Assembly (NCBI GenBank): GCA_001817505.1
Contig: MHIM01000012.1
Span: forward strand, 1 to 51,879
Source: Candidatus Buchananbacteria bacterium RIFCSPLOWO2_01_FULL_39_33
GTDB lineage: Bacteria > Patescibacteriota > Patescibacteriia > 2-01-FULL-39-33
Length of the DNA: 51,879 bases
Direction: 5' to 3'
The notes under the pieces were generated by a model. It worked only from the letters and a program-made list of their open reading frames with translations. It ran no database searches and was not told where the DNA came from. Positions 4,465 through 15,685 of this stretch are shown one piece after another. Made by a program: the position numbers and the translations under genes. Each line of letters opens with the position of its first letter. The stretch's first letter is position 1.

Positions 4465-5823
4465 ATGACCCAATCAGCCATCCAAGCTGCTATCCAGCAA
4501 ATTTGCCAAGAAAAGCATATTTCCGAGGAATCAGTTTTATATACTATTGAACTGGCGCTGGCCGCTGCTTTCAGAAAGGACTTCGGCAATAAAATGCAGA
4601 ATATCATTACTGAATTTGACCCGAAAACCGGCCAAGTCAAAGTTTTTGATTTCAAAACCGTAGTGGAGGATTTGCCAGCAGAAGAATTGGCAGAATTAAA
4701 AGGACAGGCAGAAAAAGAAATTAAAGAAGTTGAAGCTGTTAGAGATGAAAAATCTTTTATCACTGAAGAAAGTTTAGAGAGCCAGGAGGAAGTCAGGCGT
4801 TTTAATCCTAAAACTGAAATCCAATTAAAAGACGCTAAACTTATCAGTCCCAAATACAAAGTCGGCGATGAAATCATTACTCCCTTGGAAGTCCCCGGTG
4901 ATTTCGGACGTATGGCCGCCCAGACCGCTAAGCAAGTAATCATCCAAAAAATCAGAGAAGTTGAGAGGCAGAATATTTTTGATGAATTTAAAGTCCTGGA
5001 GCATCAGGTCGTTAACGGCAGTATTCAACGGAAAGAAAGCCGGAATGTCTTGGTTGATTTAGGCACGGTTACCGCTTTGATGCCATTAGAAGAACAGGTT
5101 AGCGGTGAAAGATATAATGTCGGCAATCGCCTGAAATTTTATATCCGGTCAGTTGAACAAACTGCTCGCGGGCCGCAAATTATTGTTTCCCGGGCCAGCG
5201 CTGAAATGGTGAGGAAAATTTTTGAATTGGAAATACCGGAAATAGCCAGCGGTGTTATTGAGATTAAAGCCATAGCCAGAGAGGCCGGCAATCGGTCAAA
5301 AGTGGCTATTATGACCAATGATGATGGTATTGATCCGATTGGGTCTTGTGTTGGTCAGCGCGGCGGCCGGATACAAACTATTATCAGCGAGCTTAATGGC
5401 GAGAAGGTTGATATCATTCTTTATGATGAAAATCCGGTCAAGTTTATTACCAATGCTTTATCACCAGCTAAAGTGCTTAGTGTGGAAATCAAAGAATCGG
5501 GGCCTGATCAGGTAAAGGAAAAATCAGCCATCGCTACCGTCAAAGAAGATCAATTGTCATTAGCTATTGGCCGCGGCGGACAAAATGTTCGTTTAGCGTC
5601 AAAACTAACTAATTGGAAAATAGACATTATCTCGGCTTCAGAAAAAATACCGGCCGAAATTCCAACTGAAGCAGTTGAAGCTGAACCAGTGGCCGGGGAG
5701 ATCAAAGGAGCTGAACCGAAAGTTAAAGCCCGAAAACCCCGCCAGCAGAGAGCCAAGAAAGGAGAGCCAACTGAAGAAGTTGAAGTTGAAACAGCAACCG
5801 AAGATAAGACCGCCGACCAATAA
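4465..5823 (+). CDS. nusA: transcription termination/antitermination factor NusA
   Basis: S1 domain plus two KH domains (GSCVGQRGGRIQ, LAIGRGGQNVRLAS). Acidic insert in the N-terminal domain and a Lys/Glu-rich C-terminal tail. Confidence 0.93.
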   Translation: MTQSAIQAAIQQICQEKHISEESVLYTIELALAAAFRKDFGNKMQNIITEFDPKTGQVKVFDFKTVVEDLPAEELAELKGQAEKEIKEVEAVRDEKSFITEESLESQEEVRRFNPKTEIQLKDAKLISPKYKVGDEIITPLEVPGDFGRMAAQTAKQVIIQKIREVERQNIFDEFKVLEHQVVNGSIQRKESRNVLVDLGTVTALMPLEEQVSGERYNVGNRLKFYIRSVEQTARGPQIIVSRASAEMVRKIFELEIPEIASGVIEIKAIAREAGNRSKVAIMTNDDGIDPIGSCVGQRGGRIQTIISELNGEKVDIILYDENPVKFITNALSPAKVLSVEIKESGPDQVKEKSAIATVKEDQLSLAIGRGGQNVRLASKLTNWKIDIISASEKIPAEIPTEAVEAEPVAGEIKGAEPKVKARKPRQQRAKKGEPTEEVEVETATEDKTADQ

Positions 5824-5885
5824 TCAAAATAAGTTTAAAACTTAAAATCCAGGTAATTTAGTCAAACTAATCAAAGGAGAGTTTC

Positions 5886-14415: not shown

Positions 14416-14646
14416 ATGACAGCCAAAAGAATCATTATTGAAGTTAAACCCAATGCCAAAGAAATTAAAGTTGAAAAAATAACTGATAATATTTATAAAA
14501 TCAAACTCACTGCTTCACCTATTGGCGGGCAAGCCAACCGGCAATTAATTGAAGTTTTAGCCCAATATTGGGGAGTGGCTAAAAGCCAAGTGGAGATAAA
14601 ATCCGGCAGAAACAGCAAAAGTAAGGTGTTAATAATATATGGATAA
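14416..14646 (+). CDS. DUF167 (YggU-like) protein
   Basis: 76 aa. VKPNAK...LTASPIGGQANRQLIEVLA...VEIKSGRNSKSK matches the UPF0235/DUF167 pattern. Confidence 0.8.
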   Translation: MTAKRIIIEVKPNAKEIKVEKITDNIYKIKLTASPIGGQANRQLIEVLAQYWGVAKSQVEIKSGRNSKSKVLIIYG

Positions 14647-14766
14647 CTAAGAGTTGATAATCAATCTAATTTCTTATATAATGCCACTGGATTATTGATG
14701 ACTGGCGGTGGTTATGGAAAATTTCGCTAAAATAAGCGATTTTTTGTTTATTTTCAATATAAACCC

Positions 14767-14795
14767 TTGACATTAAAGATTAATTTTGCTAAAAT
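14767..14795 (+). promoter_or_regulatory. near-consensus sigma70 promoter of the long noncoding unit
   Basis: TTGACA (14767-14772), 17-nt spacer, TAAAAT (14790-14795). Confidence 0.65.
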
Positions 14796-14801
14796 TATAA
14801 G

Positions 14802-15243
14802 TTAAATGTTAAAAATAATATCCACAGCTCTGCAGGCACGACAAGCATAGGAATTATAAAAAGGATTATTTTGGTTTCGACTGGAATTTTTCCTTTAAGT
14901 AATTTCTTGTCTGCAGGGTCGTGGATAGTATTTGCTAATCTGTAGGTCTTGTACAAAAACAATTTGTCACCTTCCATTTGAGAAAGTTTTTATCTCTTTT
15001 TCTCATTCCGCGAACCTGCCTGCCGGCGCAGGCCAGAGCGGAAATTACGCTTAGGTGGGCTGCTACGGCTAGGCACGACAAGCATGGGAATTTTTCTAAG
15101 CTCTTTTGGGGCTTCGGCTCGAAAACTGCTTGGCAGAATTTTTCTTGCCTGGCCATAAAAGCCCAACTAAGTATTAATAGACCTACAGATTAGTGGATAT
15201 TATAAAATCCACCCCGATATCACATCGGGGTGGATTTGTTTTT
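14802..15243 (+). ncRNA. unclassified large structured RNA (about 440 nt) with internal duplication
   Basis: Promoter and strong terminator bracket about 440 nt with no credible ORF. Perfect 15-bp long-range helix CTAATCTGTAGGTCT (14935-14949)/AGACCTACAGATTAG (15179-15193). Hairpin of about 115 nt (14817-14930) has G-U pairs valid only on the + strand. cUUCGg tetraloop hairpin at 15108-15120. 22-nt direct repeat AGGCACGACAAGCATRGGAATT (14834-14855, 15071-15092). Confidence 0.6.
15207..15243. terminator. strong bidirectional intrinsic terminator
   Basis: ATCCACCCCGAT (15207-15218) pairs with ATCGGGGTGGAT (15224-15235), followed by TTGTTTTT. Also lies just downstream of the minus-strand gene ending at 15248. 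Confidence 0.85.
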
Positions 15244-15247
15244 GAGA

Positions 15248-15685
15248 TTATATTTTATGTCGCCAGACCTCTTCAATTTCTCTCTGATTCTTAAAAGTAT
15301 AATGATGGCTTTTTATTTTTCCAGTTTTAGAATCATTACTAACGGCTTTCTTATCGCCCAAATAGAAACCAATATGCTGATGATTATTTTTTGCCTGCCA
15401 GATGATAATATCACCAGGCGAAATTTTGTTTTTTGTTATTTTTTCCCAGCCGGAATTTTCCAGGTCTTTTATGGTACCAGTTACTGTTAAGTGCAAATTG
15501 CCTATTAAATCAAAAATTTTTAAAATTGAAGAAACAAAATAGGCGCAGGCCAAATCACCGTTTTGAGTAAGATTTTTTTTCCGGCCATTGATTAAGCCAT
15601 AGGCCTGACGCCAAGTCGTGCCGCCGATACTATTCTTTATTAAAACCAAATAATTGTCTTTTTTAATAATGGTTATTTTTTCCAT
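15248..15685 (-). CDS. NlpC/P60- or CHAP-like cysteine peptidase (probable cell-wall hydrolase)
   Basis: 145 aa. Candidate catalytic Cys (DLACAYFVSSIL) and His (HQHIGFYLG) in papain-like order. Adjacent to the VanW-domain gene. Confidence 0.5.
   Translation of the reverse strand: MEKITIIKKDNYLVLIKNSIGGTTWRQAYGLINGRKKNLTQNGDLACAYFVSSILKIFDLIGNLHLTVTGTIKDLENSGWEKITKNKISPGDIIIWQAKNNHQHIGFYLGDKKAVSNDSKTGKIKSHHYTFKNQREIEEVWRHKI

Follow-up and report, generated by a model that had tools for sequence, protein, structure and literature searches.

A structured noncoding RNA of Patescibacteria built from one or two copies of a bulged hairpin module

Among described bacterial RNAs, the closest in form to the RNA reported here are the rod-shaped housekeeping RNAs 4.5S/signal recognition particle (SRP) RNA and 6S RNA. 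The bacterial small SRP RNA (4.5S RNA; RF00169) is a single long hairpin of ~110-130 nt, encoded by one gene per genome, whose sequence-invariant internal features form a protein-binding site. 6S RNA (RF00013) is rod-like: its closing stem leads into a stretch left unpaired on the 5' strand and then into a long terminal stem. It acts in trans and comes from a single-copy gene with a strong promoter of its own. Lineage-restricted orphan structured RNAs also exist as a kind, with raiA and OLE as precedents. Here we analyse a locus in a 51,879-nt contig of Candidatus Buchananbacteria (MHIM01000012.1; assembly GCA_001817505.1), called the window below, to the whole of which all coordinates refer. 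Positions 14802-15243 of its + strand are, judging by sequence, a gene for a structured noncoding RNA of ~440 nt, with its own transcript predicted from a promoter and a terminator. This RNA has in common with SRP RNA the long single hairpin, the one gene per genome and the invariant internal features, and with 6S RNA the architecture of the rod, the single copy, the strong promoter and, presumably, trans action. We treat it as a new RNA family without a detectable relative, found in Parcubacteria-group Patescibacteria. A search of the whole window against Rfam 15 at gathering thresholds returned a tRNA-Glu only, and at E <= 10 the region gave only weak matches, driven by the terminator hairpin; 18 related loci yielded only tRNAs and one 16S rRNA at gathering thresholds, and five related loci had no match over the element at E <= 10. 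ARAGORN found the tRNA-Glu and no transfer-messenger RNA (tmRNA) in the window, and neither this RNA nor any other structured RNA specific to Patescibacteria turned up in a full-text literature search. The initial annotation, made from the letters of the window, had called the class unknown and could fit no features of RNase P, tmRNA, SRP or 6S RNA; no known family is matched at either Rfam threshold, and membership of those four is excluded by model searches, by ARAGORN and by the absence of their motifs.

The internal duplication that had been noticed in the window RNA consists of two copies of a bulged hairpin module of ~113 nt. From base to apex, the module is composed of a variable outer stem P1, a helix P2 (GGCA/UGYC), a 10-nt bulge CGACAAGCAU, a helix P3 (RGGAA/UUYUY), variable middle helices and an apical helix in which an invariant G.U lies beside an invariant G:C. 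The bulge is invariant and confined to the 5' strand; opposite it the 3' strand has 0-1 unpaired nt, and P2 and P3 abut there in all 77 modules. P2 and P3 are sequence-invariant on both strands although they are base-paired. The apical G.U step sits ~25 stacked layers from the P2/bulge/P3 block on the same rod, and the apical loop varies among modules (UUCG, UACG, UCCG, UUUUA or longer). The elements of the two window modules are as follows.

14817-14929 (+): module 1, a bulged hairpin with P1 at 14817-14834/14912-14929
14835-14838/14908-14911 (+): module 1 P2, GGCA/UGUC, flanking the bulge
14839-14848 (+): module 1 bulge CGACAAGCAU, invariant
14849-14853/14903-14907 (+): module 1 P3, AGGAA/UUUCU
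14868-14875/14880-14887 (+): module 1 apical helix, with the invariant G.U at 14873/14882
15050-15171 (+): module 2 with extended P1; match to the covariance model R1 at 15054-15167
15072-15075/15146-15149 (+): module 2 P2, GGCA/UGCC
15076-15085 (+): module 2 bulge, invariant, followed by P3 GGGAA at 15086-15090
15108-15120 (+): module 2 apical C(UUCG)G hairpin

The copies are linked by a direct repeat, AGGCACGACAAGCATRGGAATT at 14834 and 15071, which extends to 53 nt with 74% identity, and the window contains inverted repeats at 14813-14841/14905-14933 and 14925-14949/15179-15203. The covariance model R1 was built from the module alignment. Both window modules match it end to end, and so belong to the family as defined by P2, the bulge, P3, an apical GGY..RCU helix and a covarying P1; module 1 scores 104.6 bits on the + strand and 19.5 bits on the - strand, and module 2 scores 92.0 and 22.2 bits, respectively. 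The minimum-free-energy fold was consistent over all 78 modules folded.

The + strand of the region folds to -187 kcal/mol, compared with a shuffle mean of -110.6 +/- 5.9 (z = -12.9), and the - strand reaches just -150.3 kcal/mol. Against R1, true modules reach 75-108 bits on the + strand and stay below 35 bits on the - strand. Read from the opposite strand, the invariant G.U pairs (columns 33:106, 35:103 and 62:79) become A-C mismatches; this pair of observations indicates that the RNA reads from the + strand. Across 77 distinct modules 88.5% of cells are paired versus 70.1% after shuffling, and the covariation score is 0.52 versus 0.196, with 0/500 shuffles as high, shuffle-based statistics that are inflated by the relatedness of the sequences. 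When partners were slid by 1-3 columns the score was at most 0.146, and both sides change in 15 of 19 P1-P2 pairs and 6 of 8 apical pairs. For the full-length RNA (28 sequences), 93.4% of cells are paired versus 83.9% in shuffles and both sides change in 65 of 114 pairs; helices 7, 9 and 10 of module 2 are 90-94% paired, with 13, 5 and 9 pairs, respectively, changed on both sides. Both the slid-partner controls and the large number of independent pair types speak against a covariation artefact. Judged from these alignments, the RNA is strand-specific and noncoding, and its fold has been kept by selection. The structural features listed in the initial annotation are all present, at or within a few bases of where it had placed them; its long-range helices and internal duplication gain the support of covariation, and its cUUCGg tetraloop hairpin is the apical loop of module 2. 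It had also named a confident Rfam hit, or a lack of conservation and covariation, as findings that would speak against it: no such hit was obtained, and conservation and covariation are both present.

The open reading frames (ORFs) over the region, which had been suspected of not encoding protein, are short and mutually overlapping, and the longest ORFs over the locus range from 26 to 205 aa without pattern. One ORF, of 60 aa and on the opposite strand, was tested: its tblastn matches stem from DNA conservation alone, and it breaks into different frames in several relatives. No conserved reading frame was found at the locus among these short, overlapping and variable ORFs. Public annotations contain 'hypothetical protein' calls of 60 and 55 aa opposite the RNA, without Pfam match (window 14795-14977, - strand; L002:4709-4891; L010:4380-4562 and 4575-4741), and the 60-aa call is probably spurious.

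Relatives were sought with the exact 19-mer GGCACGACAAGCATRGGAA, common to both copies, in GTDB with one genome per species, a form of recruitment that underestimates both the breadth of the family and the variability of its core. The scan produced 67 stretches. Sixty-one are true loci, all in Patescibacteria, ultra-small bacteria of groundwater, and the six isolated matches, which lie in high-G+C genomes, apparently inside coding regions and with no associated structure, were set aside. The true loci derive from Buchanan-, Kerfeld-, Falkow- and Veblenbacteria, the 'Parcubacteria group' and several assemblies labelled otherwise; in the NCBI taxonomy, Buchanan- and Kerfeldbacteria are different candidate phyla within the Parcubacteria group. 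A metagenome collection contributed 88 further stretches, 80 of which were searched with R1, giving 113 model matches and ~70 stretches with modules. The RNA is single copy, with one locus per assembly (the complete chromosome CP066698.1 included). Blastn against 50,697 phage and 72,556 plasmid records found no match, and an RNA of a mobile element or phage was rejected on this ground together with the single locus per genome and the conserved housekeeping synteny.

The two-module form, to which the window belongs, occurs at 31 loci. Eleven of the second modules were missed by the exact 19-mer and recovered only with R1, and a 12-mer, CACGACAAGCAT, is conserved in second modules that had not been selected for it. 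The single-module form occurs at 29 genome loci, in Kerfeld-, Falkow- and Veblen-type lineages and others, as an RNA ~130-190 nt long; most of these modules have a promoter ahead of them, and a short 5' hairpin peculiar to the lineage. A U-run directly follows P1 in most single-module loci, which suggests that there the module is roughly the entire small RNA, the arrangement of about half of the lineages. At some of these loci (e.g. L027, L029, L031, L034 and L055) an A-run also precedes P1 and a convergent VanW-like gene ends a few nt away; in such compact genomes the hairpin probably doubles as a bidirectional terminator. Another single-module locus, L035:4426-4581, keeps the invariant core and carries a long insertion (..GGGCTTGGTTTTATCTCTGAAACCTTTTTACAAAAAAGGTTTCAG..) in place of the apical region, hence its R1 score of just 20 bits. 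A tandem pair at L059 (2382-2497 and 2554-2670) has GGAGG-type P1 stems, a diverged second module (58 bits) and neither the linker nor the long-range helix of the Buchananbacteria RNAs, and looks like an independent duplication.

The window shares module 1, a long-range helix, a linker, module 2 and a separate terminator with 27 aligned relatives. Between and around its modules lie the following elements.

14927-14948 (+): 5' strand of the long-range closing helix of domain B (RNAalifold consensus)
15180-15201 (+): 3' strand of the same helix, pairing with 14927-14948
14963-14996 (+): central linker, conserved in two-module RNAs only
14966-14976 (+): linker element GUCACCUUCCA, invariant in alignment A3
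14978-14984 (+): linker element UUGAGAA, invariant in alignment A3
15006-15043 (+): variable hairpin UUCCGC..CCUGCCUGCCGGCGCAGG..GCGGAA, folded in the window; alignment A3 columns 280-330

Module 2 is enclosed by the 22-bp long-range helix, in which 90.2% of cells are paired and 18 of the 22 pairs have changes in both partners. Direct repeat D3 relates the outer stem of domain B to P1 of module 1 as its homologue, which fits an ancient tandem duplication, and both modules have retained the full invariant core since. The central linker is probably single-stranded. The only helix predicted within it, UUCCA/UGAGAA, never varies and is impossible in the window, where it would leave a 2-nt loop; this and two other candidate hairpins (AAAUUUG/CAAAUUU and GAGA/UCUC) were rejected as invariant and hence uninformative, or as missing in members that include the window. 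By inspection, the CU-rich element GUCACCUUCCA resembles the anti-Shine-Dalgarno sequence UCACCUCC. The sequence CACCTTCC lies between the modules in 31/31 Buchananbacteria-type two-module loci and is absent from L059 and from all single-module loci but one, where the lone match, ~510 nt upstream, is probably due to chance. Two proposals of the initial annotation concern this half of the RNA. The CCTGCC..GCAGG element that it had picked out does exist, within 15006-15043, as part of a hairpin that is not general to the family: it is dispensable, differs in length and sequence, and is replaced by unrelated hairpins or missing in some relatives (L018, L032, L033 and L074). An alternative fold involving ATCCAC, GTGGAT and the terminator is possible in the window sequence only and is not conserved in relatives (alignment columns 477-589), so this part of the annotation is not supported. 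Two loci depart from the common architecture. At L061 a 162-nt insertion (5705-5866), bounded by an 18-nt inverted repeat with a 17/18 match (GGGTCTGTCACTTAATAG .. CTATTAAGCGACAGACCC), interrupts the conserved linker of an otherwise intact RNA, and looks like an inserted long hairpin or miniature mobile element. At L007 (1576-1810, an ERZ4902915 contig) the NlpC/P60 protein is identical to that of the window, and the terminator, the 3' strand of the long-range helix and approximately the 3' two-thirds of module 2 are kept, after which the 5' strand breaks off inside P3 and a HhH-GPD gene follows; the explanation is a truncated RNA in this strain or a chimeric assembly.

The transcription signals and the adjoining genes of the window are listed below.

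14767-14795 (+): sigma-70-type promoter, -35 TTGACA, 17-nt spacer, extended -10 TGcTAAAAT, 11/12 matches
near 14802 (+): transcription start predicted from the promoter position
15205-15243 (+): intrinsic terminator with a 14-bp stem (7 G-C pairs, 15205-15237), a 5-nt loop and a U-tract
14416-14646 (+): DUF167/YggU gene, upstream neighbour of the RNA
15248-15685 (-): NlpC/P60 gene, downstream of the RNA and convergent with it

Thus the ~440-nt promoter-to-terminator unit that had been proposed, with TTGACA-17-TAAAAT at one end and the terminator at the other, is present. An equivalent promoter (at least 10/12 matches to TTGACA-17-TAnnnT) occurs at a fixed distance upstream in 45/60 homologous loci, 44 of them with the TG, and an equally good score in only 7/258 control windows drawn from the same loci, which supports a transcription unit. 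The position of the terminator is likewise kept: most of the 28 aligned relatives have a G+C-rich hairpin followed by a U-run, the sequence itself not being conserved. The surroundings are ordinary chromosomal housekeeping DNA of ~38% G+C, and the same locus with identical flanking proteins is recorded in groundwater assemblies, including GCA_001817455.1. In the window, minus-strand VanW-like and HSP20 genes come after NlpC/P60, so that a separate terminator and the NlpC/P60 gene lie between the RNA and vanW. These two genes are the only neighbours common to several lineages: a VanW-like gene is found near the RNA in 40/62 loci, convergent in 37, and HSP20 in 32/62, and in 37/62 loci the VanW-like gene ends within ~100-200 nt of the RNA 3' end. 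The VanW association is absent from Falkowbacteria-type loci and inverted in L030, L037 and L053. What lies upstream depends on the lineage: the two-module group has Metallophos-DUF167, many single-module groups have RuvB on the opposite strand, and Falkowbacteria have an RNase J-like gene.

A second small promoter-to-terminator unit was seen between DUF167 and the RNA promoter (window 14654-14745, + strand), and at the equivalent position in L018-L084. It is composed of TTGATA-17-TATAAT (14654-14682), ~40 variable nt and a T-run hairpin (14724-14745) whose stem is the palindrome GCTAAAWWTAGC. This palindrome lies 81-164 nt upstream of module 1 in 28/32 two-module loci and 3/28 single-module loci, and is nearly absent elsewhere across 466 kb of these loci. 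Three identities are conceivable for the unit: a tiny RNA, the terminator of DUF167, or an operator at which a regulator of the RNA gene would bind.

The reading that we favour, at a probability of roughly 0.45, is that of a stable, separately transcribed structured RNA of housekeeping type that acts in trans by binding a conserved partner, as a scaffold or decoy in a ribonucleoprotein, and that takes a two-unit form in Buchananbacteria. The functional unit would be the rod-shaped ~113-nt hairpin, which presents two invariant sites about two helical turns apart: GGCA-CGACAAGCAU-RGGAA with UUYUY-UGYC, and the G.U plus G:C step near the apex. The bulge and its flanking helices may be the site at which the RNA is recognised by a conserved partner in the cell, most likely a protein or a complex of proteins, for which it would serve as scaffold or decoy. 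In the Buchananbacteria type, where the unit is duplicated in tandem and the second copy is enclosed by the 22-bp helix together with the linker GUCACCUUCCA..UUGAGAA, the RNA would bind two copies of the partner, and the linker could add a second activity, possibly pairing to purine-rich Shine-Dalgarno-like sequences. Protein binding is favoured because the paired strands of P2 and P3 are sequence-invariant, which a pairing seed alone would not require; invariant helices around an invariant bulge are typical of protein-recognition sites, as in SRP RNA and ribosomal-protein sites. The local sequence that was searched, namely the window and neighbouring 5' regions, yielded no complementary targets. 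Several points weigh against this interpretation. An invariant 10-nt unpaired stretch also looks like a base-pairing seed, and neither of the shared neighbours, VanW-like and HSP20, is an obvious RNA-binding protein. All members were recruited by the exact 19-mer, which partly imposes the invariance of the core, a bias that the 12-mer kept by unselected second modules counters in part. The metagenome scan contained no transcript-sized contigs, only contigs >1 kb, and is therefore silent on transcription. A bolder version, which we regard as doubtful, sees in the module the RNA component of a housekeeping ribonucleoprotein that is specific to the lineage and has SRP- or 6S-like status, present as a fused dimer with an anti-Shine-Dalgarno-like arm in Buchananbacteria; the bulge and the G.U would then be read by RNA polymerase, the ribosome, or an envelope or chaperone system.

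Less likely again is a base-pairing riboregulator, in which the unpaired bulge would seed pairing with mRNAs encoded elsewhere and the CU-rich linker of the two-module form would act as a second seed for purine-rich ribosome-binding sites. The conserved unpaired segments of 10-11 nt, the start codon contained in the bulge complement AUGCUUGUCG, the likeness of the linker to an anti-Shine-Dalgarno sequence, and a gene layout typical of trans small RNAs (own promoter and terminator, no co-directional downstream gene) all speak for it. However, matches to the two complements in the 52-kb window are at chance (7 versus 6.5 and 4 versus 2.2 expected, in counts that include the element itself) and none in the window falls at a gene start, duplexes with the 5' regions of HSP20, VanW, RuvB and other neighbours have the same energies as shuffles, and pairing would leave unexplained both the invariant paired strands of P2 and P3 and the apical G.U ~25 layers away. 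The same geometry can be read in terms of transcription. A closing stem of ~22 bp, a 10-nt unpaired 5' strand and a ~25-layer terminal stem with a second conserved site, in a single-copy gene with a strong promoter and a housekeeping context, would suit a functional analogue of 6S RNA that docks in the RNA polymerase holoenzyme as a promoter mimic, with the bulge as a possible template for a short product RNA; likewise, the bubble of E. coli 6S RNA has its template on the 5' strand. We consider this improbable, given that there is no Rfam 6S match even at E <= 10, that 0-1 unpaired nt opposite the bulge make neither a bubble nor a mimic of the non-template -10 strand, that the unit measures 113-130 nt against ~180 nt in 6S RNA, and that near-absolute sequence invariance is atypical of 6S RNA, for which we know of no tandem duplication.

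About as improbable is a ligand-sensing or catalytic RNA, either an orphan aptamer acting in trans or a new ribozyme, with the bulge and G.U forming a pocket or active site. Very high invariance within a covarying scaffold is typical of such cores, and the tandem arrangement recalls tandem aptamers, but the RNA does not lie in a 5' UTR (untranslated region), being followed by a terminator and then, in most loci, a convergent gene; the invariant sites are far apart on the rod, the apical loop sequence varies, the bulge and the loops showed no covarying tertiary pairing with each other, and nothing matches any Rfam ribozyme or riboswitch. We give very little weight to a cis element of the convergent vanW-hsp20 operon, whether a bidirectional terminator, an antisense element or a 3'-UTR element. 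The persistence of the nearby VanW-like gene end despite differing upstream genes, and the A-run and U-run around P1 in several single-module loci, as in bidirectional terminators, are what such an element would explain. Yet a terminator needs no 19-nt invariant core, no covarying 35-layer terminal stem and no strong promoter, the invariant G.U pairs would be mismatches in a vanW-sense transcript, and the association with vanW is interrupted by NlpC/P60 and a separate terminator in the window, lost in Falkowbacteria-type loci and inverted in three others. Least probable of all is that the locus encodes a universal RNA (SRP RNA, RNase P RNA or tmRNA) so divergent that Rfam fails to recognise it. 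In general form the single-module RNA recalls 4.5S RNA, being a ~115-130-nt hairpin that is encoded once per genome and whose internal features are invariant, and the two-module form approaches RNase P RNA in size. Against this stand the lack of any Rfam match at E <= 10 and of a tmRNA by ARAGORN, the variable apical loop (UNCG or longer) with no GNAR tetraloop or SRP domain IV loops, the absence of RNase P P4 sequences, and an organisation in one or two equivalent modules unlike that of any universal RNA.

Patescibacteria (the candidate phyla radiation) account for a large share of bacterial diversity, have tiny genomes and have seen almost no experimental biology. The RNA is very likely important to these cells, since genomes of ~1 Mb have kept it, together with its consensus promoter and 19-nt invariant core, and since it covaries heavily across several candidate phyla. 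It offers a handle for metatranscriptome mapping, partner pull-downs and structure determination, and the new covariance model would remove spurious 'hypothetical protein' calls over the locus from public annotations.

Several further resemblances were considered and dropped. A riboswitch or cis leader was rejected because the RNA ends in a terminator of its own and faces a convergent gene, the downstream genes in most loci being different or convergent. By eye, P2/bulge/P3 resembles 23S rRNA at H70-H71 (AAAUUCCUUGUCGG / GCACGAAUGG) and at 522-538, and the linker is similar to the 3' end of 16S rRNA; local alignments of P2/bulge/P3 to E. coli rRNA were equalled by 18-38 of 200 query shuffles, the linker matched neither E. 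coli rRNA above shuffles, and rRNA mimicry was abandoned. TIGR-Tas arrays are known from parasitic bacteria, according to one report (PMC12045711). No Tas-like gene occurs among the Pfam matches of the neighbours, and an array of this type was discarded. TIGR repeat units are, moreover, far shorter than 113 nt. For RNase P RNA (RF00010 / RF00011) there is no Rfam match, and the P4 sequences GGAAAGUCC .. ACAGAA are absent from the sequence; for tmRNA (RF00023), ARAGORN found no tRNA-like domain or tag frame and Rfam no match in the region.

Every testable defining feature of SRP and 6S RNA failed in this family, namely the model match, the domain IV motifs and the two-sided bubble. The SRP RNA models (RF00169 / RF01854) find no match here, and the family lacks the GNAR tetraloop as well as the symmetric and asymmetric loops of domain IV; a plain helix with the invariant G.U adjoins the apical loop, the invariant part is located towards the base of the rod rather than beside the apical loop, and the whole is duplicated in one lineage. 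Unlike 6S RNA, where the bubble is unpaired on both strands, it has a one-sided 10-nt bulge, and it further differs in the failed model match, the unit of ~113-130 nt, the sequence-invariant core and the occurrence of one or two tandem modules. Tandem riboswitch aptamers such as the glycine riboswitch similarly place two homologous domains side by side, both keeping the core, but the present RNA is not in a 5' UTR, has no expression platform, has a terminator and a convergent gene downstream, and consists of a single domain in many lineages. With raiA, OLE, ROOL and GOLLD the family shares strong covariation, restriction to a lineage, its own transcription signals and a function that cannot be read from context; it matches none of them in sequence or structure, is a simple rod rather than a multi-junction fold, and belongs to Patescibacteria. 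The sponge RNAs of the CsrB/RsmZ type are built from repeated, near-identical structured units with GGA triplets in the conserved parts, as is this RNA, which differs in having one or two units of 113 nt rather than many short GGA hairpins, and GGA triplets that are base-paired in the P3 and P4 helices rather than exposed in loops. By analogy with these sponges, each repeated unit plausibly provides one binding site for the same partner.

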